The translations under genes were made by a program, and so were the position numbers. The notes beneath the pieces are model-generated. The model ran no database searches, was not told the origin of the DNA, and saw only the letters and a program-made list of their open reading frames with translations. From the sequence record MH494197.1: 64,000 nt of DNA; one strand, 5' to 3'. Source of the DNA: Escherichia phage CMSTMSU. Shown in pieces: positions 2,876 through 64,000 of the stretch. Position 1 is the stretch's first letter. Every line of letters begins with the position of its first letter.

Positions 2876-2876
2876 A

Positions 2877-7259: not shown

Positions 7260-7270
7260 ATTGGTATTCC

Positions 7271-8165: not shown

Positions 8166-8199
8166 AAATCCCTGTACTTTGAAGCGTACAAATATTGGT

Positions 8200-8626: not shown

Positions 8627-8712
8627 AAGAATGTCAATATCACCTAACTCTTCTGCATAACCAAAAATACATATACTGATGTTTTTGCTATATTAAATTT
8701 CATATTCTTCTC

Positions 8713-10693: not shown

Positions 10694-10899
10694 ATTTTTC
10701 CTGTACTATCTGTATAAGAATACCTATGTGTGAATTAACAGTTCTCTCTTGATGCTGTGTTCCTAAGAGTGTCAGTACTATCATATCTGAACGCAAAAGA
10801 TTTTTTCAAGTTCACTTATATCAGTTCTTGAATCAAGTGCCATATATTTGTGATTATTCTTCCTGAATAGTGCCAAGTACTCTTGATTTGATATTTCCT

Positions 10900-11430
10900 T
10901 CATAGTTTATCCCTGATGCCATTTAAAAGTGCTCTAATATGTTCCTGTACGAATTTGTACTGACTGTCTGTTCCTAGAGTGAGTAGCAATCTTAAATCTG
11001 AACTTTTGATGTGATATTCTAAATCATTATTTGATTCTTGCATCAGTTTCTTAAAGGATGAGAAGTTTGCAGCCATTAGTTCAATGTATTCTGCTGTTCC
11101 TAGTGGTTTGTGTATTGGCTGTTTGTGCATTTTAATTTTATTACCCTTTGAGTGTATTAATGTAATTATACACATTGGCTTTTGATAGTTAGTTCCCAGT
11201 GTAGCTTGAACATAGATTTCATTTAACTTAATAATTTTATCAGTATCTGGTAGTTTTGATGTGTTAATGGCAAATAACTTCAAAACAGTCCATTTAAGAT
11301 TGTTAGGTATTCTTCGTCGGTAATGATTCGCATTTGCATTGGATAAACCTTTTAGTTCTTTGATGTAATCATTAATATTGCATTCTTGATAGTTAGTCCC
11401 TAGGGTAGCTTGAACATAGATTTCACTCAT
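10900..11430 (-). CDS. hypothetical protein with three LGT modules (fusion or read-through of tandem paralogs)
   Basis: ATLGTNYQ occurs twice plus LTLGTDSQYKFVQEHI. Confidence 0.4.
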   Translation of the reverse strand: MSEIYVQATLGTNYQECNINDYIKELKGLSNANANHYRRRIPNNLKWTVLKLFAINTSKLPDTDKIIKLNEIYVQATLGTNYQKPMCIITLIHSKGNKIKMHKQPIHKPLGTAEYIELMAANFSSFKKLMQESNNDLEYHIKSSDLRLLLTLGTDSQYKFVQEHIRALLNGIRDKL

Positions 11431-11533
11431 TAGAATATTTTTTCTTCATCAGGTAAATCTGTGGTCTTTGCTATATACAATTTTAGAATTAAACTACTTA
11501 ATAGTTCGTGGTATTCACTTGGTGAAAGGATTT

Positions 11534-11749
11534 TCATTTGCATGTTCTCAGTACAGATTCTTTAAGTTCATCGATGTAGTCCTCAACGAATTGCTCTTGG
11601 AAGTTAGTTCCAACATATAAAAGAACTCTTAAATCTGCTCTAAGTAACTCTTTTTCATCCTCATCTATATCAGACAATGTTATGTTTAAGAATTTACTTG
11701 TATTAAAGATTAACAATTCTGTTTGTTCACTGTGGTTTAAAATTTTCAT
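11534..11749 (-). CDS. hypothetical protein, LGT-motif family
   Basis: LLYVGTNFQEQFVEDYI. Confidence 0.5.
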   Translation of the reverse strand: MKILNHSEQTELLIFNTSKFLNITLSDIDEDEKELLRADLRVLLYVGTNFQEQFVEDYIDELKESVLRTCK

Positions 11750-11957
11750 AATCTCTTTTTGCTTTCCTCGACAGTAGGTACAAATACGATTCTTCGTATT
11801 GTGCTTGGAAGTTTGTGTTTAAGAGTCGAAACAACTTCTGTTCTTCTAGAACGAGTTGCTTATCTTCATAACAACGGTAGCGTATCAACTTTTTGTATTC
11901 GATGTTGATTACATCCATTACTATAAGCCCATGTTCATCATCTGTCAAGTGCTTCAT
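11727..11957 (-). CDS. hypothetical protein, LGT-motif family (variant)
   Basis: LLNTNFQAQYEESYL. Confidence 0.45.
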   Translation of the reverse strand: MKHLTDDEHGLIVMDVINIEYKKLIRYRCYEDKQLVLEEQKLFRLLNTNFQAQYEESYLYLLSRKAKRDYENFKPQ

Positions 11958-12162
11958 GCTTTTTTCTTTTCCTGATGTGTTTAGTTAAAAGGTATATTAG
12001 TTTTCTGATGTATTCTTCCTGATAGTTTGTTCCTAGGAGTGCAAGAAGTTTTGCTTCAACTAAAGCTAATTGACGTTCTTCGAATGTGTGTTCCAGTATG
12101 TACTTTGGGTTTGATTTTTAGATATTGCACTATTAGTTTTCATTACAATCTTATGATATTCA

Positions 12163-12420
12163 TTAACTGTTAGGATTTTTAAATTCTTGAGCATGTACCT
12201 TTTCCTTTATAGAGAATTTAAGATATCGAAGCATACTTTCAATGTAATACTCTTGTCTGTCAGTTCCAAGAAAGTACAGGAGTTGAATGTATAAAACTTC
12301 TGCACTCCTTTCGGCATGTGACTTGTTTGTGTCGTTTGGAAGTTGATTTGTAAGTTTTCTGGATTTAATTAATCGTTCTTTTAACTCATCGTCTGTTAAG
12401 TATATCATTTCATTTTGCAT
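12163..12420 (-). CDS. hypothetical protein, LGT-motif family
   Basis: FLGTDRQEYYIESML; N-terminus MQNEMIYLTDDEL shared with 12457..12645. Confidence 0.5.
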   Translation of the reverse strand: MQNEMIYLTDDELKERLIKSRKLTNQLPNDTNKSHAERSAEVLYIQLLYFLGTDRQEYYIESMLRYLKFSIKEKVHAQEFKNPNS

Positions 12421-12456
12421 TTACTTTTTCCATAATAGTAATTTTGAGATATTTAA

Positions 12457-12645
12457 TTATACGTTCAATGTGATACTTTGCCTATCAGTTCCAAGAAGGT
12501 ATGGTAATGACTGGAATAAAACTTCTGCACTCCTTTCTGCTGGGGTTTGGTTTGGGTCATTTGGAAGTTTATTTGTAAGTCTTTTGGATTTATCTAGTCT
12601 TTCTGTTAACTCATCATGTGTTAAGTATATCATTTCATTTTGCAT
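12457..12645 (-). CDS. hypothetical protein, LGT-motif family (C-terminus probably frame-disrupted)
   Basis: Near-identical N-terminus to 12163..12420, ends prematurely after LGTDRQ. Confidence 0.45.
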   Translation of the reverse strand: MQNEMIYLTHDELTERLDKSKRLTNKLPNDPNQTPAERSAEVLFQSLPYLLGTDRQSITLNV

Positions 12646-12881
12646 TTAATGTTCCTTACGTAAATTGTCTGGATTAAAAGTGAAATCCATTTTTCTACAT
12701 ATTGGTTTTGATACTGTGTGCCTAAAAGACTCTGCATTTTAAACTCTTCTTCGAGTGCATATCTCGTTTCTATAGTAAAGCTTAAATGACCATATTCTTT
12801 ATCGTATCTTCTCAGTGCTTCCCCAATTCTATCAAATCTTTCTGCTATTCTGATGTTATTAATTTTATTCATCGCATTCAT
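12630..12881 (-). CDS. hypothetical protein, LGT-motif family
   Basis: LLGTQYQNQYVEKWI. Confidence 0.5.
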   Translation of the reverse strand: MNAMNKINNIRIAERFDRIGEALRRYDKEYGHLSFTIETRYALEEEFKMQSLLGTQYQNQYVEKWISLLIQTIYVRNIKCKMK

Positions 12882-12966
12882 CGATCAGTACACCTTAGTG
12901 GACGGGTCATTTGATAAAAGTACAGCTTACCTTTGATTTCCAATAGTAACTCAGCAATTAATCGAT

Positions 12967-13155
12967 TTACTTCTGGCTCTTGATAGTTTGTCCTAACAAT
13001 GCACCCATCTTTAACTCACGCATCATAATCATTTTCTTACTGTGTTGAATTTCTGGGTTGTGATAGATTGTATTACGTTTGTGTGTAATTTTTGTCATAC
13101 GCTCGGTATATTCATCTTTACTTAAATTGATCATTTGCATGTTCATCAACCTCAC
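12967..13155 (-). CDS. hypothetical protein, LGT-motif family (variant)
   Basis: N-terminus MQMINLSK shared with 13563..13811. Confidence 0.45.
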   Translation of the reverse strand: MRLMNMQMINLSKDEYTERMTKITHKRNTIYHNPEIQHSKKMIMMRELKMGALLGQTIKSQK

Positions 13156-13562
13156 ATTTATTTTCGATACAAATCATTAGTTCTCTAAGATAGTTTTTAT
13201 CTTACCTTCCTGATGGTTCGTCCCGAAAGTTGCATAACTCTGCTTCTATCATTTTGATTCTTCTGGTGTCAGGTTTCAATCTTTTGTTATTGAAGATTTG
13301 AATCCTTATATCCCTTGATGCATTTAAACGTTTTGATATTCATGGAAAGATAAATTAATCATTTACTTTGTATCTCTCTCTTGAGGGCATCAATTAACAA
13401 CAGTACAGCATTCTCTTGATAGTTTGTTCCTAAGACTGAAAGCATCTTAATCTCATTTACTACGATCAACTTCTTTGAGCGTTCAATAATGTTACTATTA
13501 TAAACGGCGTTACGTGCTGGATAAGTTTTGCAAGACGATCATAATATTCATCTTTACTTAAA

Positions 13563-13811
13563 TTAATCATTTGCATTTCTCGTACATTTACTTAGTTTAC
13601 TCCCAATGTATTTCTTAAGTGTAATTATATATTCCTCTACATAATACTCCTGATAGTTAGTTCCTAAGAATGCACATAGCTTTGTCTCACGCTTCATAAT
13701 CATCTTATTTTCGTGTTTGTTTACTTCACCGAAATGGATTTCATTAAGTTTAGGTAAGATTTTTGCTTGGCGTTCTTTATATTCAGATTTACTTAAATTA
13801 ATCATTTGCAT
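13563..13811 (-). CDS. hypothetical protein, LGT-motif family
   Basis: FLGTNYQEYYVEEYI. Confidence 0.5.
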   Translation of the reverse strand: MQMINLSKSEYKERQAKILPKLNEIHFGEVNKHENKMIMKRETKLCAFLGTNYQEYYVEEYIITLKKYIGSKLSKCTRNAND

Positions 13812-14014
13812 TTACTTTGGATCTCCTTGACTAATGCATCAACCCACATGTCTATATACATTTGTTGATAGTTTGTCCCTATGAGTGCCCTGCATAGAGT
13901 TCAGCTATCATTGCATGTTTTAGGTTGGCAGGATGCTCTTATCAGATTGAATCTTTACTCTTCTGTTGGCACATGTTTTCAGGAGTCTGATGTATTCAAA
14001 GCCTTGTAATTTTC

Positions 14015-14230
14015 TCATTCTTTAGATATCACCTTGTTACGTAAGGCACTTAACAATACGTCAGTGTAGATGTTTTGATAGTTTGTTCCTACGAAAGCAC
14101 CCAACTTCATTTCAGCTATTATAACACATTTGTCCTCTTGTGCAATAGACTTGTCTAAAGAAATACTAACAACTTTCCTTCTTATAGCTTGTAATCTCCA
14201 ATGATACTGATACTCATTTAGGGTTATCAT
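14015..14230 (-). CDS. hypothetical protein, LGT-motif family
   Basis: FVGTNYQNIYTDVLL. Confidence 0.5.
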   Translation of the reverse strand: MITLNEYQYHWRLQAIRRKVVSISLDKSIAQEDKCVIIAEMKLGAFVGTNYQNIYTDVLLSALRNKVISKE

Positions 14231-14465
14231 TCTCTCGCCTCCATATCTCGGTTCTAATGTGTTGACATTGTGCTTCGATGAACATATCTATTGATTTGGC
14301 AATTGCGTTTTTATCTGTGCCAGTCATCAGTACAAGCATCTCGGCCTCACAGTGAAGTAAACGCATGATATCATAGGGTAATATTCCAGATACCGTGTCA
14401 TAGTGTTTCTGTGCCAGTGTCTGTAATAGTTTACAATACATTTTGTGATTTAGTCTGTGTCGCAT
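14214..14465 (-). CDS. hypothetical protein, LGT-motif family (variant)
   Basis: LMTGTDKNAIAKSIDMFIE. Confidence 0.45.
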   Translation of the reverse strand: MRHRLNHKMYCKLLQTLAQKHYDTVSGILPYDIMRLLHCEAEMLVLMTGTDKNAIAKSIDMFIEAQCQHIRTEIWRRENDNPK

Positions 14466-15587
14466 TGTTTATTCCATTCTTTTTGGCCCTCTGGGTTTTA
14501 TATTGGATTTGGTTTCTTAATGCTGATAAGTATCGTTGAATGAACAGATCTTGATAGTTTGTTCCAATGAATTTCATAAGATAAAGTTCACCGTTGATAA
14601 CATCCACTTCAGGTGCACCATATAAGGCATTGTTTTTCTAAGGGCATGGATTAAAGAGAATAGGGCAGTTTGATACTCAACTCCTGATAAAGTCTTCATG
14701 TTTTGTGAGCCAATAATCATCTAGTTTATCCTGTATAACATTCATTAATTGTTCGACATATTCTGTGCAAAACTTATCTTGATATTGAGTCCCATAAAGT
14801 ACAGCAACCATAGCTCATTAACTTTAGCTCGCATTTGGTTCCATGTAAGGCTGGGGTCATCGTAGACTATCCTTGCTATAGGGTTAGTTTACGGACTATA
14901 GTTTCATATTCATCTAGTGTTAAGTGTTTCATTTACATTTGTCCCTTATTAGATCAGTGAGGGCAACTATGTGTGCAACAACATACTCTTCCTGAAAGTT
15001 CGTCCCAGTACAGCCATCATGCGTATATCGGTGGTGTTTATCCTGTGTTCCCTTACACATAAACCTTCTGTGTGAGGAAGTGTAAAATATTTGTTTATTG
15101 CAGCAATGATAATTTTATTCTTCTCGGAATTACTTAAATGTTTCATAGTTTGCTCTTAATGTATTTCTGGAGTGCAATTATATACTCATTCAAGAAGTGC
15201 TCTGATAATCTGTGCCGAGGAATGCACCCAATAGTATATCATTTTCCAATACTAATGCTAAGTTCAAATCATCAGTCTCTTCATATACTATGAGAATTTC
15301 AAGTTGTCTGGCAGCGACGCGTTCGGTATATTGATTTGAGTTTGCAATGATATTCATAGTTTACTCTTTATGTAATTCTTGAGTGCAATTAAGTATTCCC
15401 CTACATAATACTCCTGAAAGTCTGTATCCAAAAATGCACCCATAAGTAAATCTTTTTCTAATACCCTTGATAAGTTAAGGTCTGCATTTGAAAGGTATAT
15501 AAGTAAGATTTCACCCTGTGCGGAATTGAAACGTTTCTTATATTCTTCTGGTGTTAAAAAATCATAGTTTACTCTTAATATCTTCTA

Positions 15588-15770
15588 TTAAAAATGAATC
15601 CAATCGTCAACATACTCTTCCTGATGGTTTGTGTTCAGTACAGCCAACATGCGGATCTCTGCTCTTGCAACTTGGATTTCAGTTTTAGAAAGGTCTTTGC
15701 TGATATCAAACATTAAGTCCATGTATTTCAAGATAAGACCGAATGATTGGGTTCGTGTTATAGTTTTCAT
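15588..15770 (-). CDS. hypothetical protein, LGT-motif family
   Basis: VLNTNHQEEYVDDWI. Confidence 0.45.
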   Translation of the reverse strand: MKTITRTQSFGLILKYMDLMFDISKDLSKTEIQVARAEIRMLAVLNTNHQEEYVDDWIHF

Positions 15771-15967
15771 TGTTTCCTCGTGGACAATATTTCATTTTTC
15801 AATGCATCCATATATTGAATCACCCATCTTCCCTGATAGCTTGTTCCCAATGTAATCAAAAGGTATAACTCAATTCGTTCTAAGTTTGTGTCTGTGTTAT
15901 AAATCTTTACCATGTTTTTACGTAACAGTTCTTGATAATCTTCTTTATTTAAAATACGCATTTTCAT
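15767..15967 (-). CDS. hypothetical protein, LGT-motif family
   Basis: TLGTSYQGRWVIQYM; 4-nt overlaps with neighbours. Confidence 0.5.
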   Translation of the reverse strand: MKMRILNKEDYQELLRKNMVKIYNTDTNLERIELYLLITLGTSYQGRWVIQYMDALKNEILSTRKQ

Positions 15968-16161
15968 AGTCTACCTTTTATGTCCCTTCGTAATTCTTGT
16001 AAGTATAGTTCGATATACTTTTCTTGATAGTTAGTTCCTATGAAAAGTTTCATAACCAATTCACGCTTATATGCAATACCACGGATATGTGACATATGTA
16101 GGATATATGCCATGTTGGATATGAGTGTGTGGTTGTGCTCTTCTTCAGTTAAAATACGCAT
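15964..16161 (-). CDS. hypothetical protein, LGT-motif family
   Basis: FIGTNYQEKYIELYL. Confidence 0.5.
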   Translation of the reverse strand: MRILTEEEHNHTLISNMAYILHMSHIRGIAYKRELVMKLFIGTNYQEKYIELYLQELRRDIKGRL

Positions 16162-16205
16162 AGGGACTCCATTAAAAATAATATCAATCCCATAATATAC
16201 GATTC

Positions 16206-16380
16206 ATATAAAAGTCAATAACATTTTATTCGTAATACCCTTTATCGAAGTCGCTAAGGTTACCCGCCCTTTAGCCCCTACGCATTTTGCCATAGTCCAA
16301 TCCTTTTATTCATAAAAGTCAAGGGATTACCTATGCATTTTTTAACGCTGAAGTTTAAAAATGCCTTGACTTTTTATGAT
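16206..16380. repeat. TCATAAAAGTCAA repeats (two direct, one inverted) in ORF-free region
   Basis: Copies at about 16206 and 16312 (direct) and 16365 (inverted TTGACTTTTTATGA). Confidence 0.45.
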
Positions 16381-16877
16381 TCAGTACTAAATCCTTTTAC
16401 GCATTAATCCTTCGTTACGCTTACGATTATCTGTGTATCCCCATAGTCCTGCCATACTTCCACGCCAGCCGTCGCCCGGTTAGTCGTGCTGTCATCTGCT
16501 TAATGGTCTTAGGCTTTAGTGGAACCTGTTGCAGTACTGTACGCATAGTATCATCGACGTTATCGTGTACGCCTGCAATAGTGCCTAGGACGCTGTATAC
16601 GTGTATAGAACATATGTATGCCCTCCTGATATAGTTAAGGCCGCTACAAGGCGGCCTATGATGTTTGGTGATGTGTAACGCTTACAGTCCTAAGATAGTG
16701 CGTGCTTCGTTACGTTCCGTGCACAGCTGCATGATGTGAGCAAGTAAGTCCTTGCTAATGTATCCGGTGTTCATAGCTTCACGAATAGATACATCATAAG
16801 CACCGAACCCGTGCGAACGATACGCACATCATTCAGGTTAGTATTATAGATACCGCCGAGATCAACGGCTTCGAATA

Positions 16878-28625: not shown

Positions 28626-29691
28626 CAAACTTTCTACCATCTCAGGAGTAAGGTCTGCGGGTAGGAAACTACTTCATCAACGAAACGTAAAGGAATACCC
28701 CAGCGAAAGGTGAACGTGCTTTCTTAGTATTACTCTTTTTGATGCTTTCATTTCATATTCTTAATTAGTGGGGAGAATCATTTCTCCCTTCATGTAAAAC
28801 ATTATACGCGTTTAAAACTAATTGCAAGTACTATTTGAAAGTAAATGCTCATACGCTACATTAACTACGTTTTCAATAACCGACTGTACAGAAAGATCCC
28901 CACTTCCGGCTATAGTAGAAATCGCTTACAGTAGTGTCATCGTATGCAAATACTTTACCGTGACTGCATCAATCACATACATATTAACCTTTAAGATGTC
29001 GATCTTATCCTGTACAGTAAGCATATTAATTAACCTTTTAAGTACTGACTTAAGTAATCTTGTTGATCTTCGGTGATTGCAGCCATCTTCCCTAGTACTG
29101 GATTAATGATATAATCCCTGTAACGTCCTGTAACGCATTCTCAGGCGGTTTAACGGCTGGGGTAGCCATAGCCATTGCCGACTTGTTCGACGCTGTAACG
29201 CTCATAAAGGCGGCATTCTTCCGGTGTTAACATAGCATCAATGCGTTTCATTGGTTTAATGATGCTTTCGATCTCATTCAGTACTTGATTAACGTTCATG
29301 GTATAATCCCAATATAAGCGGCCTAAATCGACCGCTAACGATGTTTTGATTAATAGGTGTATGGTTGACGTTCAAACAATGATTGCACGTTGTACGCCCC
29401 GCTTATGGGCTTTGCTGGTAAATCAATTTTATATTGTTCACGCTTAAAGATAATAAAACGGCAATTGTTTTAACATCAAAATTGATTGAACGTTCCGAGT
29501 TTACCATCGTGCACAAATACAAGATAACCGCTCGCTACTTGTTTTGTAGTACTGGTTGCAACCATAGACCGCCGAACATGTGTACCTGCGTCGATTAAAG
29601 TACTGATATTTTTCATTTTACTATCCTCTTAAGTTGATTTAATTTCTTTCCCTATGCAGACACTGTACCAAAGTATCTGCATAAAGTAAAG

Positions 29692-29973
29692 CTAATTAAA
29701 GATCTTTTTACGTTTTACATCCTGTACAGTACAATGCAACGGGATAGACAAATCATTGCACAAACGATAGAGGGAGGTTTCATCAGTATTAAGCCCGTCT
29801 ACTGATTCCTTTAAGAGAGATAACGCCGTTTGTTGGTATGCATCTTCATAGCCATAAGTAAATGATTCAACCGCCAGATCATTCAAGCCGTTATCCAGTT
29901 CGACGCTTACATGACAAGAATGATGTATTGCCATATGAATCAGACCAACGTTTACCGTCAACATTGATTGCAC
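29692..29973 (-). CDS. hypothetical protein (fragment; paralog of 22548..22745)
   Basis: An upstream frame encodes …VDGKRWSDSYGNTS…, the same motif as the 22.6-kb gene. Confidence 0.4.
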   Translation of the reverse strand: MQSMLTVNVGLIHMAIHHSCHVSVELDNGLNDLAVESFTYGYEDAYQQTALSLLKESVDGLNTDETSLYRLCNDLSIPLHCTVQDVKRKKIFN

Positions 29974-30338
29974 GGATTGCAGCCGAAACGGTGTTAATGA
30001 TAGTTTTAGCCATTTTAGTATTCCTTAAATTAATATGTGTCGTCTTGATAAAATCTATTATGCCAGTACTATCAAACTATGTCAATAGTACTGTGATAAT
30101 ATTTTTACTTACTTTTTGCTTTCTTTATTGCTTCCACCGGTCGGCCCATTCTTTACCCCATACTTGTAAATTATAATGGTACTGGCAAAGTGCAACGCCC
30201 CGCTTTAAACCAGTAATAGATTTTTACCACATTGACAAGTTTTCATTTTAGTTTCCTTGTAGTGGGAGAACCATTTTCCCCTTGATGTAATGTATTATAC
30301 TTTATTCGATTTACTTTGCAAGTACTTTTTAATTTAAT

Positions 30339-30551
30339 TCATCCGTAAAGGATACGCTCAACGCCCAAATCAGTTAAACTAATCGACGGCACTTGATAGG
30401 TTTCAATGTATGCTACACTTGCCCACTGACCGAACTCATTAACGGCCGTATTCATTGCATTTTGCAATTCCACACCTTCCTTGTTGGTAATGACTGCAAC
30501 TACTTGTTCGTTGCCAGTAGTACCAGATACGCGAGTAATGATAATAGCCAT
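30339..30551 (-). CDS. hypothetical protein (70 aa)
   Basis: Track ORF directly downstream of a promoter cassette. Confidence 0.5.
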   Translation of the reverse strand: MAIIITRVSGTTGNEQVVAVITNKEGVELQNAMNTAVNEFGQWASVAYIETYQVPSISLTDLGVERILYG

Positions 30552-30619
30552 TTTTTAATTCCTATTCAGTAGTTGATGTATGTATTATGCCAGTACTTAA
30601 AACTATTGTCAAACTATTT

Positions 30620-30772
30620 TTAAAGTTTATCAATGATTGATGCCGTTTCATTGATAGTCTTGCCGTGTTTTGCACACGCGATAACTGCTTTAAATTCCTT
30701 TGATGACCAATCTTTCTTACTGCATACTGACATTACTTGTAAAGTAAAACAATCCAGTTCATAAGTATTCAT
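30620..30772 (-). CDS. hypothetical small protein (50 aa)
   Basis: Hand-translated; MNTYELDCFTLQVMSVCSKKDW…. Confidence 0.4.
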   Translation of the reverse strand: MNTYELDCFTLQVMSVCSKKDWSSKEFKAVIACAKHGKTINETASIIDKL

Positions 30773-30985
30773 CTTTATATCCTCAGTTAGTTAAGGTGTC
30801 TGCCTTGATGTAATTAATTATACGCTAATCTCTTAATCGTGCAAGTACTTTTATTACTTTTTGCAAAATACTTTAAACGCTCTCAATCGCATTACAACGA
30901 CCTTAACGCCACCAGCTAGGCAATGCATCAGATAATCAGTTTAAAGCGTTAGAATCGTTTCTAGGCGGTGCTGGTGGCGTAAACG

Positions 30986-31015
30986 ATAAAAAAAGCCCAC
31001 CGTTTAAGGTGGGCT
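30986..31015 (-). terminator. rho-independent terminator (minus strand)
   Basis: Minus-strand AGCCCACCttaaacGGTGGGCT followed by TTTTTTTAT; 13 nt after the stop of 31028..31261. Confidence 0.6.
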
Positions 31016-31027
31016 AGTGATTCAGTT

Positions 31028-31261
31028 TTATGCTTCAACTTTGCGATGAGCTTCGATCCATTCCTCGCGAGTCATACCACTGGAGTTAATCGCGTCCAGT
31101 ACTACCGCAATGCAGTTACCACGCACCGGAATCAGATATTCTTCCCGTTGTACTACCGCTACGCGTTCCTGAATCCATTTTTGGCTTTTACTTCTGGCTT
31201 GTCTTCCCATACTTAACCGCCGTGGCTTTTGTGCCATCTCTGTAACTACTTCCAGATCCAA
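31028..31261 (-). CDS. C-terminal part of the preceding gene
   Basis: Overlapping frame; ends 13 nt before terminator hairpin. Confidence 0.4.
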   Translation of the reverse strand: MDLEVVTEMAQKPRRLSMGRQARSKSQKWIQERVAVVQREEYLIPVRGNCIAVVLDAINSSGMTREEWIEAHRKVEA

Positions 31262-31406
31262 CTACTGCCGCCTGAATACTTTCGATTGTTGCTTGTAGTT
31301 CTGCTTCACGGGCCGCCTTTGCCGCTTCAATTTCTGCCGCTTTATTTGCTTGTAGTTCTTTCGCAGTACTGTAAGCGATGTTAAAATTATTGCGTACCGC
31401 TTTCAT
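31188..31406 (-). CDS. hypothetical protein, Ala/Glu-rich N-part (frame-disrupted; continues in 31028..31261)
   Basis: Overlapping same-strand ORFs; gene followed by a terminator. Confidence 0.4.
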   Translation of the reverse strand: MKAVRNNFNIAYSTAKELQANKAAEIEAAKAAREAELQATIESIQAAVVGSGSSYRDGTKATAVKYGKTSQK

Positions 31407-31691
31407 GGTATCGTTATCCAGTTCAGCCGGATCTCAGCCGCGACGTTAGTTTCATTTGCACCAGTGCTTTGATGAATGATTTTACATTAGCCATTTTATA
31501 AATCCTCAATTAAAGTTTAGTTTACGTTTATTAGTGTATCAAAGTTTTCTGACGTGTCCAGTTTTTCGTTCGACTTACTGGCGGTCTACTTAGTGCTCCC
31601 CGTCTTGATGTAATACATTCTACGCCTTTTTGCGGTAATGTCAACTACTTTCTTAAAACTATTTTCAAAGTATCTCAGTACTACGATACTA

Positions 31692-31717
31692 CAAAACAAA
31701 AAGCCCACCCGTGGGCT
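31692..31717 (-). terminator. rho-independent terminator (minus strand)
   Basis: Minus-strand AGCCCAC-GGGTGGGCT hairpin followed by TTTTTGTTTT. Confidence 0.5.
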
Positions 31718-31979
31718 GTATTAATCAGTAAGTAAAATATTAAACACTTTACCATTTAACGTTATTGGTGCACTGCTACCGTGCTCAAGATCCGTTAGTA
31801 TACCTGCAATCGCTTTATCATTGGCGACCTTTCCAGTGTCCAACAGTACGACAGTACTGATAAGATTAACGCTCGTTTCAATATCATAATGCACGGCGTT
31901 AAGGAGTTGTGTATACTGCTTTCGTTAAGTAAAACTATTCGTGCTGTCATGATGTACCCGTAGTATCTATCAACGGCAA

Positions 31980-32267
31980 TTAATAACGCCGGAATGCGTT
32001 ACTTTCAGTATCCATAACAGTGACCGAACCGCGTTTAGTACTTGCATCGTAATAAATTGTCGTGCTACCTTTTTCGTCTTCTTCATGGAACGGCCCGTTT
32101 TTAAATGCTTCTGGCTGGATCTCTAAATCCTTTAAAACAATCTCGCCAGTACTTTCATTGGTCATCGCTACAGTGCACTGAATGAATTTTTCACTACTTA
32201 CATCTAACGACGCATTAACAGCGAAAGAGGAAACAGATAAAGCCGTGGCGATGATTGCAATTTTCAT
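31980..32267 (-). CDS. small secreted/periplasmic protein with N-terminal signal peptide
   Basis: MKIAIIATALSVSSFAVNA-SLD: hydrophobic core plus AxA cleavage-like site. Confidence 0.55.
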   Translation of the reverse strand: MKIAIIATALSVSSFAVNASLDVSSEKFIQCTVAMTNESTGEIVLKDLEIQPEAFKNGPFHEEDEKGSTTIYYDASTKRGSVTVMDTESNAFRRY

Positions 32268-32677
32268 TTGATTATCCTTAGTTACGGGAACCGCTCTTGC
32301 GATGTAAAATATTATACAGTACTAAAAACTATTATCAAGTACTTTATGATTTTTATAAAACATTTCAGCAGTGATATTTTACCCGTTGGCTGTACTTTAT
32401 CCAGAATTTTTGATGTCCGGCCGTCCAAATGAATATGATCCGTAAACCGTAAACCAGTAGTTACCCTCAGTGTTTACATGTACAGCATAATAGGGAACGC
32501 CCGCGATTCATCACTAGTAAAGTGTGCTACCGTTCCGTTACATTCGCAGACGTTGATTTGATTTGTTCAAGCATTTTATTATTCCTTAGTTACCGTGGGA
32601 ACTGCTCCTATGCAAAACATTATACGCGTTTAAAACTAATTGCAAGTATTTTAATAAAAGTATTTGAAAAATAGTTG

Positions 32678-32706
32678 TTGACAAGTGCATCCAGTACTGG
32701 CATAAT
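32678..32706 (+). promoter_or_regulatory. plus-strand consensus promoter (TTGACA-N17-CATAAT)
   Basis: TTGACA 32678-32683, CATAAT 32701-32706; faces a terminator about 100 nt downstream. Confidence 0.4.
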
Positions 32707-32712
32707 TACTAC

Positions 32713-32815
32713 ATCAAGACGAAACAGTCACTAACCCACCGGGTGCATAGATCCGTCTATTAAATGATTCAGTACTGAAAAGTAACGGGAGTTATTATCT
32801 CCCCGTTGTTATTTT
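32713..32815 (+). ncRNA. candidate small RNA (promoter to terminator, about 100 nt)
   Basis: No ORF; ends with hairpin AACGGGAG-ttattat-CTCCCCGTT + T-run; contains the repeated GCACCCxxTGGG element in inverted orientation. Confidence 0.25.
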
Positions 32816-33029
32816 GTGGTATAAACAGAAGTCGCCTTTATTTGCTACGCCGCCAGTGTAACGCGAGGAATAGTCACCCGACTTCTGCTATTACCAGTGT
32901 ATCATCATTCAATTCGCGCAAACGGCTGGATCTTGTACGCCGATTTTGTCGGCATGTTCCCGCATAGATTTAACCAGTGCTTCCAGTTGGGAAAGAGTAG
33001 TGATATTAGCCATTGTATTTTCTCATTAC

Positions 33030-33100
33030 CGTGGAGAACCATTTCTCCCTTTGATGTAAAACATTATACAGTACTGAAAACTAATTGCAAGTACTTTTTA
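33030..33100 (-). promoter_or_regulatory. promoter + stem-loop cassette (copy)
   Basis: Same conserved TATAATGTTTTACATCaa + GGGAGAA/TTCTCC module. Confidence 0.5.
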
Positions 33101-34750
33101 ATATTGTTTGTCGTCGTCTTCCTCGATGAATTGACCGACGAAATGATCTACTTTCGCTTTGAGGCTTTTATAATCTTCTTCTACTTCCTTTAAACGTTCC
33201 GTAGTATTCCAGTGCCTCAACATATGCGGCCTCAGCCGTTTTCTCACGCATAGCTAAATTCATTCCACGCGTTTCATCAAATAGCCAAAACCATCGGTGC
33301 ATTCACTGATAGACAATGATTTGTTTAACACATTGTACTTTATTACTTTACTCATTAGATAACCTCAGTAAAGGCGGGAACTATTACCCGCCTCGATGTA
33401 AAGTATTATACGCTTTTAAACTTAGTTTGCAAGTACTTTTAAATTAATATTCGATTGATTCTACTACGCCATCAATAACATTGAATTGATACTCGTTTCA
33501 ATCAGTGCCGTAATGTTTTCCAGTAGTGAATTGATCCTCATATGCATTCTCTAAATCACGGTACAACTTGCGGGACAATTCACGAATAGTGTCAGTGAGT
33601 AGTTCCTCAAGCTCATTAACTAACGTTTTTGTTTTGCGGTTAAATCCAGTGTAAGCCGATTCAATGTACCCGCTTACAGTATTCTTGAGTAGTGGGAGTG
33701 CGAACGCTTTACACTCATCGCCAAACCATCTTCATTCAGCAAGTGACGGATTGAGCGATTAGTTAATGCTTTACCTTGCGTAAAACTTCACTGCGTCAAC
33801 GTGGTCAGTACTGATTGATGCACCGTCCCCGGGACCAAAAGCCACTGAATCGTAAATCAGCGTCATTAATGCCATATTCCGGTAGTACTGTTTCAGTATT
33901 CATTTCACTTTCAGAAAAATAATCATCGTTTAAGTTTTTTCACGTTCCCGAACCAGTTCGATAGCTGACGTTTGTTGTTCTGCGTTCAATTCAGAAAAAT
34001 CCATAACGAAAGTAGTAGTAGTGATAGTTTTCATTTTGTAACCCTCATTCAGTAGTTGATGTAAGTATTATACGCTTTAAAAACGTCAAACTATTTTATC
34101 AGGGAGTTTTGTGCCTATTCCTCGGCTACTTAACGGAAGTTACTTATTTGTTCCCCGTCCTGATGTAAAACATTATACGCCTTTAAACATAGTTTGCAAG
34201 TACTTTTAAAAATAGTTTTCAGTACTGAATATTAAAAAGTATTGACAGCATTATCAGTACTAATATAATTCCCATGACAACAGCTAACCCACGGTGCAAT
34301 TGTAACTGTAATAAACTTTTTCTAGATACACTTCCGCACCCTATGGGCTACGGCTTATCTGCCAATGAATACATTATGCCAGTACTGACAAAATAAGTCA
34401 ATACCGGCAATTGTAAAGATTTGTAAACTGCTTATACTGCAATCGCGTCCGTGCTATAATAATAATAAGTGCTATGGTGTGACTTACCTTTTATTTCAGT
34501 ACTGAATGAATCCGAACGATTTGCATATGATGTTAATTTAAAGTACTTTGATTTGTTGATACGTTACACCACAGATCCGCGTAAGTAGTTTTATTAGTGG
34601 TAGTATCTTTACGGTTTTAACTTCAGTCATATACATATTAGTCATTTTTATTACTCCGAGTTATAGGGGAACTATTCCCGCTCTCGATGTAAAACATTAT
34701 ACGCTTTTAAACTTAGTTTGCAAGTACTTTTATTCAAGTACTGCAATCTT

Positions 34751-34975
34751 TTAGTACGGTACACGGTCACGCGGTTGCTTTCGGTCGAGCTTTATTTCTA
34801 CCACTCGACGCGATACACTATCAGGACTTTTCAACGCCGCTAACCAGTACTGTAATGATCTGGCTGTACTACGCTTTACAATGGCCCAACGTTTACCACG
34901 TTCCGATTGTACGCCCATATCTTTAAACGTTGCCCGTCCGGCGTGCTGCGATCCGAGCTTGTTCACGCGTCGCAA
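34751..34975 (-). CDS. hypothetical basic protein
   Basis: Track ORF. Confidence 0.4.
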   Translation of the reverse strand: MRRVNKLGSQHAGRATFKDMGVQSERGKRWAIVKRSTARSLQYWLAALKSPDSVSRRVVEIKLDRKQPRDRVPY

Positions 34976-35348
34976 AATACTTAATATTCATGTTGTTCTT
35001 ATCGTTGGTGTATGAATAAACACTATTATAAAGTACTATCATCGTGCAATAGTACTTTAAATCTATTCTATTACATTCCAACCATTGCAGCACGGATCGA
35101 TAGTGCTATATTTGAATCCGTCCGGTGTTTTTCTTGTCCAGTCTGTTCTAAAAAATAACATCATATGACGGGCCGCATCATTGCGATTAGTGCTATCGTT
35201 AATAAAGTCCCAACTGGTATAATGATTCATCGTTATTAATCCAAAGGCTTACATTCCAATGAGTTTTGTTTTTGTGACCTAAGAACATTTTGATTTAGCC
35301 ATTTTTAATCTTATATAGTGGGGAACTATTTCACCCTGATGTAAAACA

Positions 35349-35576
35349 TTATACGCTTTTAAACTTAGTTTGCAACTTTATTAAACTTATTTGTAATTTT
35401 GCACTGTCAGCCCATACTGTGAAACGATGCATATTATCCCATGCATCTTGTTTTAAATTTAAACTGTGCAATTCCTCAGTAGTTGCTATCCCCATTGGCT
35501 TACTACACACCGCGAAATTTTTCTCCATGTACTGATAAACCATCGTTAAATCATTTGAGATCATTACATGGATCAT
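35349..35576 (-). CDS. hypothetical protein
   Basis: Track ORF. Confidence 0.4.
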   Translation of the reverse strand: MIHVMISNDLTMVYQYMEKNFAVCSKPMGIATTEELHSLNLKQDAWDNMHRFTVWADSAKLQISLIKLQTKFKSV

Positions 35577-55948: not shown

Positions 55949-56164
55949 ATGTTACCTTTTGCTAGAATGGTTAAGTACGGGAATAAAATTGAATATAAGC
56001 CACATGGTGAACAATTAATCACGACAATAGGAACAACACAATTTACAGTTCCTGCTGGCGTTACCGAAATATCAGTATGTGTTATTTCGCCGGTGGTCAA
56101 CGTGGTGCTGGCGGCGGCTTATCGTGGCGTAATAATATTCCGGTTTCTGGTGGTGAGTACTTAA
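55949..56164 (+). CDS. leader-bearing N-part of unit 12 (same MLPFARMVKYGN leader, non-RCC1 body)
   Basis: Track ORF 55826 trimmed to the SD-supported ATG; …TTIGTTQFTVPAGVTEISVCVIS. Confidence 0.45.
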   Translation: MLPFARMVKYGNKIEYKPHGEQLITTIGTTQFTVPAGVTEISVCVISPVVNVVLAAAYRGVIIFRFLVVST

Positions 56165-56683
56165 GTGTTTCTCTTACATCCCAACACTACTACAGCAGTT
56201 GAAAACGGTTTATATCGTGGAACTGAAAAACTATGTGTTAGCTTCACTGGTGCATATACGGTTGGTGGACTAGGTGGAAAAGCTGCTAACGCTATTAATG
56301 ATGGTGGTGGTAATGGTGGCAACACTGGTTTAAGTGGTGGTGCAGTCATTGGTGGTGGTGCTGGTGGCTACACTGGTAAAGGTGGTAACGGAAATGCAAT
56401 CACTGGTGAAAATGGTGCTGGGGGCGGCGGTGGTGGTGGTGCATTCTATAATACCTCGTTCATTGGTACGGGTGGTGGTACTGGTATCATTGTTCAAGGT
56501 GCTAATGGTATTGGTGGTAGCTACGATGGTTCATATAATGGTGGTGCTGGTAGTGGTGGTGCTGGTAATAGGTATGGTGGTGGTGGTAGTATATGGGATA
56601 ATTCTTCTTATACGGCGGCTGGTGGTGGTGCTGTGCGAATAATATGGGGACGTGGGAGATATTATCCTAATAATTCAGTCTAA
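56165..56683 (+). CDS. glycine-rich domain protein (C-part of unit 12)
   Basis: Long GGxGGxG tracts (GGGAGGYTGKGGNGNAITGENGAGGGGGGG…); ends at the terminator. Confidence 0.5.
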   Translation: MFLLHPNTTTAVENGLYRGTEKLCVSFTGAYTVGGLGGKAANAINDGGGNGGNTGLSGGAVIGGGAGGYTGKGGNGNAITGENGAGGGGGGGAFYNTSFIGTGGGTGIIVQGANGIGGSYDGSYNGGAGSGGAGNRYGGGGSIWDNSSYTAAGGGAVRIIWGRGRYYPNNSV

Positions 56684-60205: not shown

Positions 60206-60317
60206 TGGGGGCAAATGAGGTTTACTGGTGTGGTAGTGGTTCTATGTTCCGGAACAGAGTGCAGGTACACAACAAGTTAAAATGAAGAAAATGATTTTAC
60301 CAGAATAGGAGGAAAAT

Positions 60318-60773
60318 ATGTTACCTTTTGCAAGAATGGTTAAGTACGGGAATATAAAAGTAAAGAGTACTATCCAAAAAGTTATCCTTGGTGGTGGTGG
60401 TCAATGTGTGGTAACATTACTCAGTGATGGTAGAGTGTATGGACGTGGATACAATACAACATATGGGTTGGGTACTGGTACAACAACATTCGTAAGTGAT
60501 TGGGTATTAATGGGCGATAATATTGTTGATATCCATTCAAATGGTGTTACTGGCACATTCCTTATTACCAAAGAAAATAGAATTTTGTATTCTGGTTTTG
60601 CGACACCAATCAATGGCACAACATCACATTATACACGTTTCACTGATTTAACATCAACTGTATTTGCTGCGGTGGATGTTAGTAATATTAAAACAATTAC
60701 GGGAAATGGTAATGTTACAATGGTTCTTTTGAATGATGGTTCACTTTATGGGAGTGCAAATACAGGGTTATAG
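60318..60773 (+). CDS. RCC1-like repeat protein, unit 16 N-part with leader
   Basis: MLPFARMVKYGN; YGRGYNTTYGLGTG. Confidence 0.5.
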   Translation: MLPFARMVKYGNIKVKSTIQKVILGGGGQCVVTLLSDGRVYGRGYNTTYGLGTGTTTFVSDWVLMGDNIVDIHSNGVTGTFLITKENRILYSGFATPINGTTSHYTRFTDLTSTVFAAVDVSNIKTITGNGNVTMVLLNDGSLYGSANTGL

Positions 60774-60882
60774 GTAATGGTAGTAACGTTGCATTATCAA
60801 CACAAACATATGTGACTAATGATGTGCGTGATGTGAAAACATATCCATCAATGAACACTATAACAAAAATAATAATCAAATA

Positions 60883-61449
60883 TTGGCTAGTGGTATTTTA
60901 TACCAAGGCGTGAACGGTACAAATTCATCAATAAACACGTCTTCATATACATTACTGTACACATTACCGAGTTCTGATTGTTTTCAATTTGCATTTGATA
61001 CATATACATTTGGATATGTTGACCCTAGTACTAACACTTCTTATATAAGAGGTATACCAATAAATGGTTCATTAGGTAATGGCGTTACTAATAATACAGC
61101 AGTTACAACATGGGTTACTAAAGTTTGGAATACACCAATTGATAGTTCTATACCTAATAAATCATATACAACTAACCATGTCTCCTTGTTCAATGATGGA
61201 AACTTATGGACAACTGGTGCATCTAGTGTCGGCTATTCCAATGGTACAAATAGCACAACAGCTAATACATGGACCAGTTCATCTAATTTACCATTCAACA
61301 CTAATAACATAACAGACTATGCTTTTGGTGGTAGTATTACTGTGGTGGTAATCGACTATAGGACTATGTACATACTAGCTAACAACGCCATTGCTGGTAC
61401 TGCTACGACAACTTATAAATTTGAGCCATATAATTCTCCACCAGTTTAA
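60883..61449 (+). CDS. RCC1-like unit 16 C-part
   Basis: Ends right before the bidirectional hairpin at 61456-61474. Confidence 0.45.
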   Translation: MASGILYQGVNGTNSSINTSSYTLLYTLPSSDCFQFAFDTYTFGYVDPSTNTSYIRGIPINGSLGNGVTNNTAVTTWVTKVWNTPIDSSIPNKSYTTNHVSLFNDGNLWTTGASSVGYSNGTNSTTANTWTSSSNLPFNTNNITDYAFGGSITVVVIDYRTMYILANNAIAGTATTTYKFEPYNSPPV

Positions 61450-61455
61450 TATAAT

Positions 61456-61481
61456 GCCAGTACTATGTACTGGCTTTCTTT
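61456..61481 (+). terminator. terminator hairpin between convergent genes
   Basis: GCCAGTACtatGTACTGGC + TTTCTTT; minus gene 61480..61857 ends on the other side. Confidence 0.55.
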
Positions 61482-61857
61482 ACATATTATATAATGTGAA
61501 TGCTGTCACTTTACCAGTTGTTGTTAGTTCATTATAAAGATACTCCAATATTCTCGCACACTCTAAGTATATCTCGATATCATCATGAATAAGTGAGTAC
61601 TGAAATAGCTGTTCTTCAGATAATTTGTATTGACTTCCTTTTAATGAATTGAGAATATCTTTCACATCATCAAGTACTGGGTAAAGTACGAAATCTTCAT
61701 CATATTTTGAAGCAATAAATTCAAATCCACCACCATCAGTACTAGATATACCAATCAGTACTTTATCAACCAAGTTAATGTTTATATAACGGTTGTGATT
61801 TGGGTGAATTGAAATCTCAAACATACGAGTACTGTTACAATCAACATCAATATACAA
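61480..61857 (-). CDS. hypothetical protein, FQ-motif family
   Basis: LSEEQLFQYSLIHDDIEIYL; isolated family member inside the RCC1 array. Confidence 0.5.
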   Translation of the reverse strand: MYIDVDCNSTRMFEISIHPNHNRYININLVDKVLIGISSTDGGGFEFIASKYDEDFVLYPVLDDVKDILNSLKGSQYKLSEEQLFQYSLIHDDIEIYLECARILEYLYNELTTTGKVTAFTLYNM

Positions 61858-61903
61858 ATATACATCGTTGAATTTATAAGTTAAGCAACCGTACTCAAGA
61901 AAA

Positions 61904-62128
61904 TCAGAGCAAATAATTGATGAGTTTTTCTCGTCTCTGCGTAATGCATCTTGATATTCTTTTCACGCATAAGTAATTCGAACTTTGCACTAAACTTGCC
62001 ACCAGTAAGATAATTAGTATTAGGACGTTTGTAACTTGCAACTGGTCGGTGGGATGATGTAAAGTATTTTTTGTGAATCGTTTCTGTTTAGTGAAATATT
62101 CTTGATAGAACTTACTTCTTTTATTCAT
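61904..62128 (-). CDS. hypothetical protein (possibly frame-disrupted)
   Basis: Track ORF co-directional with 61480..61857. Confidence 0.35.
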   Translation of the reverse strand: MNKRSKFYQEYFTKQKRFTKNTLHHPTDQLQVTNVLILIILLVASLVQSSNYLCVKRISRCITQRREKLINYLL

Positions 62129-62342
62129 GAGTACCTCAATTAAATCGCTGTAAAATTGTACATTATAAAATGATTAAATAAAGTATAACACAAGGAGATT
62201 TTATCATGTTACCTTTCGTATTGTTATTTGATTATGGGAACGAAAAACAAGAAAGTTCTTATGATGTTAGTGTATATGGAAACAATAACTACATTTTAAA
62301 TAAACAAACTGGAAACCTTTTTGCATCCGGTGCTGCGCATTC

Positions 62343-62945
62343 ATGGGTGATAACACAGTTAAGTATTATATTACCCAAATAGAATCAAATGTTCATAGCT
62401 GTGAGATAGGTTTCCTATCATCATGGATAATTAAGAAGGACAAAACTGTTTTCATTTTAGGAAACAAAAGCAGTATTGGATTAACTGATTCGACAACATC
62501 ATGGTTCGAAATTACAAACTTATTTTCTGCTGTTCCTGAAATATGGGACAACCTATTTGAATGTAAAGTTCAATTGGGATATAACTGCATACGTGTTATG
62601 ACACCACTAGGATCAATATATGCGATTGGTACAAACACTTATGGTGCATTGGGTACTGGTACTACATCCTCATCCACTTCGTTCGTTAAAAGTGGTGCTG
62701 TGGATGCTGTACGCATGGAATCAACAGAACGTTCAGTGTTCTATCAAAACAGTTCTGGACAATGGTTTGGATGTGGTGATAACACATATGGTATACTAGG
62801 TCTAGGAACTACCGCTAGTCGTGTAAACTCATACACCGCACCAGTATGGACTAATGCAGAAGCTGTTAGCTTCTCTAACCGTGGATCATATACAGCCTCA
62901 ATGGTACTCTATACTCATGTGGTGACAAAGTTAATGGTCAGCTAG
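62343..62945 (+). CDS. RCC1-like repeat protein, unit 17 body (leader ATG at 62208, MLPFVLLFDYGN)
   Basis: YGALGTGTTSS, YGILGLGTTAS repeats. Confidence 0.45.
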   Translation: MGDNTVKYYITQIESNVHSCEIGFLSSWIIKKDKTVFILGNKSSIGLTDSTTSWFEITNLFSAVPEIWDNLFECKVQLGYNCIRVMTPLGSIYAIGTNTYGALGTGTTSSSTSFVKSGAVDAVRMESTERSVFYQNSSGQWFGCGDNTYGILGLGTTASRVNSYTAPVWTNAEAVSFSNRGSYTASMVLYTHVVTKLMVS

Positions 62946-63312
62946 GGATGGATATACACAAAGCATAGACGCTGCCGAGCACACCATACACCATAGGAAC
63001 CGCATTCCAAATTGGTAAGGCAATAACATCAGCTACACAAGCATCAGCCAACGTATTCATTGGTAAAGATAATAAGTTCTATGGTACTGGTAGTATTGCT
63101 GCTGGTATAAATGGTAGTACTAGTGCTGCATTAAGTAAAGTTACTGCGTTATCAGCATCACTACCACCTGACATTACATACAATGATATTATATCATTTA
63201 ATACAGGGACCGTAACTTTTATTCAAGCAAAGGACAACTATATTATGTTGGTAGAAGAACTTACATAGATAATAGTTCAGACGTTACCACACAGTTCAGT
63301 GTAATTGGTGGA

Positions 63313-63729
63313 TTAGATAATTAAAATTAATCCAGTACTATTATAGTACTGGATTTTTATTATAACATACGTTTTTACGAATAGTATTGTGGATATTTTT
63401 AAGTAGTTCACACCTTTACACAACCCATAAAATACACCAGCACATACACCAAATGCAGGTATCATACATGCAAACATCGTTATCAATTCCCACATCTCCA
63501 TACCATCTTGATTCGGTCCAAGGTCAAAGATAACAACCAAAACCAAACCTGTGATACTTAGCATATAATATGCCATGAAGATAATAAAAGAAACAATACC
63601 AACATCAGAGCGAACTGAATTTAGCATATTATATACTGGGGTTACACAGAAGTAATACAATAACCAAATCAAAGAACCTAAACTAAACACAATAATAGTA
63701 ATGATTGAAAATATTTCACGATAACTCAT
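63313..63729 (-). CDS. multi-pass membrane protein
   Basis: Several ~20-aa hydrophobic segments. Confidence 0.5.
   Translation of the reverse strand: MSYREIFSIITIIVFSLGSLIWLLYYFCVTPVYNMLNSVRSDVGIVSFIIFMAYYMLSITGLVLVVIFDLGPNQDGMEMWELITMFACMIPAFGVCAGVFYGLCKGVNYLKISTILFVKTYVIIKIQYYNSTGLILII
63331..63358 (+). terminator. terminator hairpin at end of RCC1 array
   Basis: TCCAGTACTattatAGTACTGGA + TTTTTAT. Confidence 0.5.
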
Positions 63730-63730
63730 T

Positions 63731-63931
63731 TTAGTCCCTCGTACCTAAACGATCATGGATTTCGGAAATCTTATGATACAACCACGCCATCAACTCAACT
63801 GATGCACAGAGAATAACCACACACAGTGTTAGTGAACATATCATAATACCAAATGTTATAAAATTCAAACTCGATGTTAATAATGCAACCAGCATTAGAA
63901 TAAAACCAAAATTGAATGCTATACTCAACAC
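63731..63931 (-). CDS. small membrane protein
   Basis: Two hydrophobic helices in 66 aa; abuts the next gene. Confidence 0.45.
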   Translation of the reverse strand: MLSIAFNFGFILMLVALLTSSLNFITFGIMICSLTLCVVILCASVELMAWLYHKISEIHDRLGTRD

Positions 63932-64000
63932 AGTATATGCTGGACTATATCTCCTTTGTATTACATCATATATATTTGATAATGGTCGCTTATGGAAGTA

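Follow-up and report, generated by a model that had tools for sequence, protein, structure and literature searches.

The window analysed here, a stretch of 64,000 nucleotides from Escherichia phage CMSTMSU (MH494197.1), holds an array of plus-strand RCC1 genes, whose 17 units were defined by a leader that starts ATG TTA CCT TT. (MLPF...). Between units 16 and 17 lies a minus-strand coding segment that converges on unit 16. This raises the question of what has moved at this locus: the minus-strand segment or one of its neighbours. A sequence-only reading of the window had taken the segment for a cassette of two small early-type genes inserted in a continuous array. The segment and its convergence with unit 16 are confirmed, but its status as an insert is not borne out by related phages. 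The locus is an ordinary mosaic junction seen through error-prone sequence. The best overall explanation, to which we give a probability of about 0.65, is that a resident gene, g114, looks split because of errors in the sequence, and that what varies is the module formed by RCC1 unit 17, most likely inserted.

Relatives of the phage and loss of bases in homopolymers

The window stems from a jumbo phage of Escherichia coli that is of the Asteriusvirus type, and its identity to WPEC3 and fEgEco12 is about 99%. Positions 60800-63000 are 95-99% identical to nine E. coli jumbo phages (WPEC3, EC.P1, fEgEco12, WPEC5, Ecwhy_1, Turkey3, BF17, vB_Ec-M-J and TH47; hereafter the nine close relatives); elsewhere in the window, the matches come from the Asteriusvirus group at large, PBECO4 and 121Q among them. 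Compared with every close relative, the window systematically lacks bases in homopolymers, and most of its open reading frames (ORFs) are fragmented. All 16 indels that separate positions 60302-64000 from WPEC3 are deletions in the window, nearly all of them within base runs, and no gene in this interval is spared: unit 16, g114, unit 17 and g116 are all broken. Similarly, 55 of the 66 indels relative to WPEC5 in positions 1-12506 are deletions in the window. This is the pattern of a sequence that under-calls homopolymers, and we read the deletions as errors of the sequencing type. Since such losses fragment most ORFs, any reading of the window that is based on ORFs is unreliable. Unit 16 itself (60318..61449, plus strand), the orthologue of WPEC3_CDS113 and of the 378-aa g582 of fEgEco12, is split by homopolymer deletions and appears as two ORFs.

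One gene in place of two

The minus-strand segment appears in the window as two ORFs, of 125 aa (61480-61857, with a TTG start) and 74 aa (61904-62128), which had been counted as two genes. The annotations of WPEC3 and fEgEco12 have a single 651-nt CDS of 216 aa in this interval, and this gene, g114 (61480..62128 in the window, minus strand), is intact at that length in 9/9 close relatives. A three-way alignment shows the window to be about 99% identical to its relatives apart from missing T's, two of which lie at frameshift sites: T5 at 61925..61929, where the aligned relatives have T6, and T6 at 62067..62072, where they have T7. The 74-aa ORF is in the true frame for its first ~20 residues only. 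Furthermore, tblastn with the 216-aa protein finds three frame-shifted pieces in the window and one full-length piece in each of the nine relatives. With g114 intact in these phages and run deletions spread across the whole window, the two ORFs are best understood as pieces of one resident gene which, unlike its orthologues, is split by two one-base deletions of the sequencing-error type. The dN/dS ratio of g114, 0.08 against fEgEco12 and 0.195 against a 73%-identical lineage, indicates purifying selection.

The frameshifts are present in the sequence as given, and they might be real, as in a gene that is decaying in this phage after the loss of its operon promoter. The existence of a 125-aa UniProt/BFVD entry identical to the C-terminal fragment would agree with such a history. 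We nevertheless consider it very improbable, because every gene in 60.3-64 kb, including the RCC1 units and g116, carries the same homopolymer deletions. The deletion bias is window-wide, and a phage with all its genes broken is implausible; moreover, relatives that are 99% identical have the gene intact, and selection on it is purifying. Programmed frameshifting or transcriptional slippage at A-runs was rejected because the longer runs of the relatives keep their reading frame open, and deletions in the window occur genome-wide. A gene split by sequencing errors is thus the preferred reading, and it corrects a likely mis-annotation, in which, through frameshifts in the sequence, a single conserved gene has come to look like two and like an insert. 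The database entry in question (A0A2Z5HHK4, 125 aa) is 100% identical to the C-terminal fragment of g114, so the truncated form already stands in at least one deposited annotation.

The FQ domain of g114

An FQ motif in g114 resembles one that recurs in many small proteins, whose genes lie at 0-10 kb and just upstream of the window, and the segment had been assigned to this FQ family, otherwise found only at 0-10 kb. The assignment withstands profile searches. A hidden Markov model (HMM) trained on 26 FQ segments, all taken from the 0-10 kb paralogs and none from g114, scores all nine g114 orthologues at 11-22 bits (22.0 for the window type, 11-19 for the others), whereas none of 1000 composition-matched shuffles exceeds 7.6 bits. 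When the window was scanned in six frames, the significant matches of the model were restricted to 89-10280 and 61483-61962, both on the minus strand, the latter being g114 (E = 5e-6). Additionally, g114 gives weak cross-hits to phrog_34516, 13866 and 17453, which are families of FQ proteins. Taken together, these scores and matches mean that FQ-family membership holds at the level of the domain.

The domain occupies the C-terminal residues ~165-216 of g114 (LSEEQLFQYSLIHDDIEIYLECARILEYLYNEL...TAFTLYNM; 61483..61638, minus strand), with FQYSL encoded at 61591-61605 on the minus strand as TTT CAG TAC TCA CTT; FQYSL..DI..Y is the most conserved stretch among g114 orthologues. It is common to ~25 small acidic paralogs clustered at 0-10 kb (phrog_13866, 34516, 17453, 12674, 22855 and others) and comprises, over ~50 aa, the pattern [ST]EE-x2-FQ-x-SL-[IV]-x-D, then a helix and a terminal hydrophobic strand. 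The likeness is established for this C-terminal domain only. The typical member of the family is a small acidic protein of 100-200 aa in a tandem cluster, mostly with a pI of 4-5, whereas g114 has 216 aa, lies ~50 kb from the 0-10 kb cluster and carries an extra basic N-terminus (residues 1-70, pI 10.4). The two also differ in their content of AGTACT, with 7.7 sites per kb in g114 and almost none in the FQ cluster at 1-8837. A search of a large database with the FQ-domain profile returned three weak matches only, all on Asteriusvirus-sized contigs.

In an AlphaFold2 model of g114 (pLDDT 68.8), an N-terminal helix leads through a basic, disordered linker to an antiparallel sheet, and the FQ motif sits in helices at the C-terminus; the core between the basic N-terminus and the FQ domain is an acidic beta-sheet. 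A fold search with g114 gave no convincing match. Our best guess, held with low confidence, is that g114 is an accessory or host-takeover factor. With equally low confidence, the FQ helix may be a shared interaction module, to which the basic tail would add affinity for nucleic acids or membranes. The domain assignment links an isolated genus-wide gene to a large family of FQ paralogs and marks the FQ domain as its conserved functional core.

Orthologues and position of g114

Orthologues of g114 (WPEC3_CDS114, PBECO4 gp297, 121Q gp233, phAPEC6 gp011c) correspond to phrog_34359 (hypothetical protein), which g114 matches over its full length (E = 1.3e-56; residues 3-216 against profile positions 5-214 of 220). 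Identity to g114 is 96-100% within the WPEC3 type, 73% in a sister lineage, 46% in the PBECO4 type and 30-31% in the JNE01 type. Searches of Pfam and NCBIfam with g114 gave no family match, a word-indexed search of 5.8 billion proteins returned g114 orthologues only, and an exhaustive profile search of 1.84 billion representatives found three g114 orthologue clusters only, none outside the genus. As far as these searches reach, g114 is a conserved gene restricted to Asteriusvirus. A literature search turned up no description of g114, the FQ family or AGTACT enrichment.

The gene is single-copy in 34/34 phage records, and its orthologues adjoin the RCC1 array at a convergent junction (context inspected in nine or more genomes). 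Seven genomes without unit 17 were inspected, namely PBECO4, 121Q, phAPEC6, SD-15_S21, ph0011, JNE01 and Turkey5. In all seven, the g114 orthologue comes directly after a co-directional 372-nt gp298 orthologue and a block of small membrane-protein genes, and converges on the last RCC1 unit, while its upstream side is free of RCC1 genes. PBECO4 gp297, 121Q gp233 and phAPEC6 gp011c are thus like g114 in copy number and in place. In contrast to the context of PBECO4 gp297, an RCC1 gene separates g114 from the upstream block in the window clade. Beyond this RCC1 gene, unit 17, the block resumes: g116 (63361..63729, approximate, minus strand; 3' end frameshifted in the window) is the orthologue of PBECO4 gp298 and 121Q gp232 and corresponds to the gene directly upstream of g114 in genomes without unit 17. 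Likewise, WPEC3 CDS116-123 have the same lengths as, and sequence matches to, the PBECO4 and 121Q block upstream of gp297 and gp233. At 63361-64000 and beyond (WPEC3 CDS116-122), seven tightly packed genes for hydrophobic membrane-like proteins of 104-123 aa lie immediately upstream of g114 and unit 17; their number and lengths are conserved genus-wide.

The view that a cassette was inserted between units 16 and 17 of a continuous array draws on the layout of the window, which does look like an interruption, and on the FQ motif in one of the two ORFs, whose other copies lie ~50 kb away. We regard it as close to untenable. Not only is there one gene instead of two, but this gene is single-copy in all 34 genomes, it always adjoins the array end, and in seven genomes it is contiguous with the small-gene block on a side that has no RCC1 gene; the block past unit 17 is syntenic with the one directly upstream of the gene in PBECO4 and 121Q. 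No evidence for movement of the FQ gene was found in the genomes compared. All this is consistent with g114 being the resident terminal gene of a leftward small-gene block, situated where the block meets the rightward RCC1 array. An arrangement that proved ancestral and invariant in relatives had been named as evidence against an insert, and half of this is found, since the position of g114 at the array end is conserved genus-wide and the order unit 16-g114-unit 17 is invariant within the window clade.

Unit 17 as a module that is present or absent

What varies instead is unit 17 (62206..63324, plus strand; 374 aa in relatives), a clade-specific module that is either present or absent, and the mobile element at the junction is, to judge from the genomes compared, this RCC1 module and not the FQ gene. 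The unit is a clear RCC1 gene (PF00415, 50.2 bits against a Pfam gathering cut-off of 21.7; RCC1-like PF25390, E = 5e-18), and its window copy differs from WPEC3 by indels at five sites, each of them a deletion. Beyond the nine relatives, whose copies are 98-100% identical, unit 17 occurs only in L006 and L007, metagenomic contigs of the sister lineage, in the same position and with 88% identity. Identity to any other array unit is ~25%, and no donor copy was found in database searches. Its G+C content is 36.9%, against 31-33% in its neighbours. Between the two lineages that have unit 17, dS is 0.757 for g114 and 0.793 for unit 17, and this near-equality implies that the two genes have been neighbours since the lineages split.

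The boundaries of the module can be read from the junctions. In PBECO4 and 121Q, the junction consists of the gp298 stop, TAAAAA(A)TCCAGTACT-loop-AGTACTGGAT, a ribosome-binding site and the gp297 ATG, and ph0011 has the empty site AGTACTGGATTATTTGAGGTAGAGCAatg. When occupied, as in the window clade, the site reads AGTACTGGATTAATTT/unit 17/GCGATTTAATTGAGGTACTCatg, and the unit 17 stop codon, in reverse complement, comes directly after the hairpin (AGTACTGGATTAATTT/TAATTATC...). This hairpin (AATCCAGTACT-loop-AGTACTGGATT, 63329..63355, with a 12-bp stem) forms the left junction of the module; genomes that have unit 17 and genomes that lack it alike conserve this hairpin at the 3' end of their g116/gp298 orthologue. 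Comparison of empty and occupied junctions therefore shows that they differ by a precise module of ~1.2 kb, which extends from the conserved hairpin to the g114 ribosome-binding site. The insert contains the RCC1 ORF only, with no transposase or homing endonuclease and no significant target-site duplication. Short AT-rich repeats flank unit 17 (AATTAAATC at 62138-62146 and AAATTAATC at 63324-63332), and their 7/9 match as a direct repeat is not significant as a target-site duplication (P ~0.27). Inversion between palindromic hairpins was also considered and rejected, because the orientations of g114 and unit 17 would flip, which is not observed.

Morons in lambdoid phages such as HK97, as reportedly described by Hendrix and Juhala, are autonomous promoter-gene-terminator units between adjacent genes. 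Unit 17 is like them in being a single-gene module with a predicted promoter-like leader and a predicted terminator hairpin, placed exactly between genes that are adjacent in relatives, in opposite orientation and with a higher G+C content. Unlike morons, which are foreign, it is a paralog of a resident 17-unit array and would use a resident hairpin as its terminator, and the direction of the event is inferred. The occupied and empty sites make a clean pair, whose junctions can be read base by base, and provide an example of the gain or loss of an RCC1 array unit; the current understanding of phage genome mosaicism is unchanged by these results.

Gain or loss of unit 17

In the most likely history, unit 17 would have arrived as a moron-like insertion in the common ancestor of the window clade and the sister lineage. 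Insertion is the more parsimonious reading, and we lean towards it, because, as judged by g114, each of the two unit-17 lineages is the nearest relative of the other (73% identity, against 46% and 31%), so that one gain would stand against two losses or a special root. Alternatively, unit 17 may be ancestral, precisely deleted in the PBECO4/121Q type and absent or lost in the JNE01 type, with the hairpin left behind as a relic terminator. In PBECO4 and 121Q, the T-tract of the gp298/gp297 hairpin indeed lies on the array-sense strand, even though this is not the end of any gene in the array sense; a deletion between the flanking short AT-rich repeats would leave exactly the observed empty site, and unit 17 is as divergent from the other units as any old paralog. 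Yet no genome outside the two unit-17 lineages has a unit 17 orthologue. In addition, the last array unit of the PBECO4 type overlaps gp297 with no hairpin between them, and the gp298/gp297 hairpin can therefore be the final terminator of the array, with no need for a relic. We consider a deletion unlikely, if still a serious competitor of the insertion.

Weak rooting adds to the case for a deletion, and rooting is weak because the region is mosaic. The ATP-binding gene past the right end of the window (L001 13080-13853, WPEC3_CDS123) is 98.8% identical between WPEC3 and JNE01 and ~59% identical to its counterparts in PBECO4, 121Q and L006, whereas its neighbours g116 and g118 have the opposite pattern. 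On such a footing, the polarity of the event is at best likely.

Hairpins and putative transcription units at the junction

The promoters and terminators described here are predictions at the level of consensus. Between the stop codons of unit 16 (61447-61449) and g114 (61480-61482, minus strand), which converge, lies a hairpin with a perfect 8-bp stem, GCCAGTAC-TAT-GTACTGGC (61456..61474), of the same type as found after most array units. Its folding energies are -12.4 (plus strand) and -12.7 kcal/mol (minus strand), with z-scores of -3.6 and -2.7. Positions 61300-63500 contain four terminator-like sites against 0.9 expected; Rfam gave nothing above threshold in 60-64 kb of the window. The hairpin had been described as bidirectional and shared with unit 16. 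It is real and lies between convergent stops, but a T-tract follows on the plus strand only (TTTCTTT at 61475-61481; TTTTCTTTT in relatives, the window lacking two T's), and the tail on the minus strand is AUUAUAUUAA. Like bidirectional intrinsic terminators, it has a stable G+C-containing stem between convergent stops and a T-tract on the plus strand; unlike them, it offers no U-tract to the minus-strand transcript, for which it is a predicted terminator only. A further difference is that this AGTACT-based hairpin belongs to a family with members behind most array units.

Successive array units have a near-identical cassette between them, which consists of a hairpin (GCCAGTACT-nnn-GTACTGGC), a T-tract, ATTAAATATAGTATAATGAATAAAGGAGG and conserved leader codons. 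The leader of unit 17 (62173..62197, plus strand) is a degenerate form of it, with ATTAAATAAAGTATAAC and then an AAGGAG ribosome-binding site (ATTAAATAAAGTATAAC...AAGGAGATTTTATC ATG) and no upstream hairpin; for termination, unit 17 would borrow the resident hairpin at 63329-63355. On the minus strand, a predicted promoter-like element, TTAATCATTTTATAATG (62161..62177), lies 33 nt upstream of the g114 ATG and is the only exact minus-strand match to the cassette-like pattern; GAGG at 62137-62134 (minus strand) is the ribosome-binding site of g114. The 77-nt spacer between the divergent g114 and unit 17 differs by ~10% between lineages with a dS of ~0.76, which suggests that it is under constraint. 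Given a putative minus-strand promoter, a conserved spacer and a shared hairpin, g114 of the window clade is probably a monocistronic unit bounded by the spacer and the hairpin. It would be read leftward from the promoter-like element, and its transcript would end at the hairpin shared with unit 16. A candidate cassette remnant with one mismatch, TTACATATTATATAATG at 61480-61496, directly after the unit 16 hairpin, was set aside; it coincides in part with the conserved LYNM codons, and chance alone would give ~5 matches with one mismatch.

Shuffling of RCC1 units

RCC1-like gene arrays have been noted in phAPEC6 (PMC7247149), and variable condensation-regulator genes in fEgEco12 (PMC13070987). 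Array paralogs within one genome are 24-44% identical, compared with 82-97% for orthologues in WPEC3 and PBECO4. The units orthologous to those of PBECO4 occur in WPEC3 in the order 289, 286, 287, 291, 290, 294, 292 (PBECO4 numbering), and relatives that are ~97-99% identical still differ in the units just upstream of unit 16. Judged by these differences in order, RCC1 array units have been shuffled between lineages. The earlier proposal that early-type genes and array units are shuffled as modules is thus upheld for the array units, and fails for the FQ gene.

One array slot of the window (55949-56683) is occupied by a glycine-rich protein without a Pfam match, the orthologue of fEgEco12 g586 (245 aa), which shares its upstream cassette and its MLPFARMVKYGN leader with the RCC1 units; this cassette and the 12-residue leader are therefore portable, independently of the RCC1 body. 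Elsewhere, five minus-strand copies of a TTTAAA[ACG]GCGTATAATG motif in 28800-35363 (at 28816, 32634, 34187, 34711 and 35363) look like a promoter-type element for tiny leftward genes.

The AGTACT palindrome and a probable terminal repeat

AGTACT occurs 257 times in the window, 12-fold more often than the expected 21.5, and among hexamers the strongest enrichment is that of CAGTAC and GTACTG. The palindrome is dense at 16383-43000, whereas 43-8837 and 10877-16382 have hardly any copies. In the WPEC3 locus as annotated, it is found in all three codon frames, at 3.5 per kb of coding sequence, and in WPEC3 intergenic sequence at 11.5 per kb, where it makes terminator hairpins. Enrichment also extends to the PBECO4, 121Q, JNE01 and L006 loci. 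Within g114, AGTACT sites turn over between lineages (5, 2, 1 and 3 sites), and only the site in the FQY codons is common to them. Where the palindrome is missing, an asymmetric variant stands in for it, and this variant has a polarity: window positions 1-8837 contain TGTACT 49 times on the plus strand and AGTACA not once, the interval 8.8-10.9 kb is dense in palindromic AGTACT (15 copies), and at 10.9-16.4 kb AGTACA outnumbers TGTACT by 9 to 2, so that the variant polarity flips while the genes are still on the minus strand. WPEC5 has the same pattern of variants, which is thus not a sequencing artefact.

It is conceivable, if doubtful, that RCC1 units are autonomous cassettes, each made of a promoter-like leader, the MLPF...YGN leader and an ORF, that are moved by recombination at AGTACT hairpins, and that unit 17 joined the locus in this way and brought an outward promoter that made g114, until then the last gene of an operon, its own transcription unit. 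If so, module shuffling in these jumbo phages would have the AGTACT palindrome, with its 12-fold enrichment, as its substrate throughout the genome.

The linear records of fEgEco12 and vB_Ec-M-J have right ends that map to position 16257 of the window, and the AGTACT-dense zone starts 126 bp further on, at 16383. The ends of fEgEco12 are direct terminal repeats of 20,993 bp, as determined by PhageTerm and restriction digests (PMC13070987). From the mapped record ends and this repeat length, the interval ~16.3-37.2 kb of the window probably corresponds to the terminal repeat.
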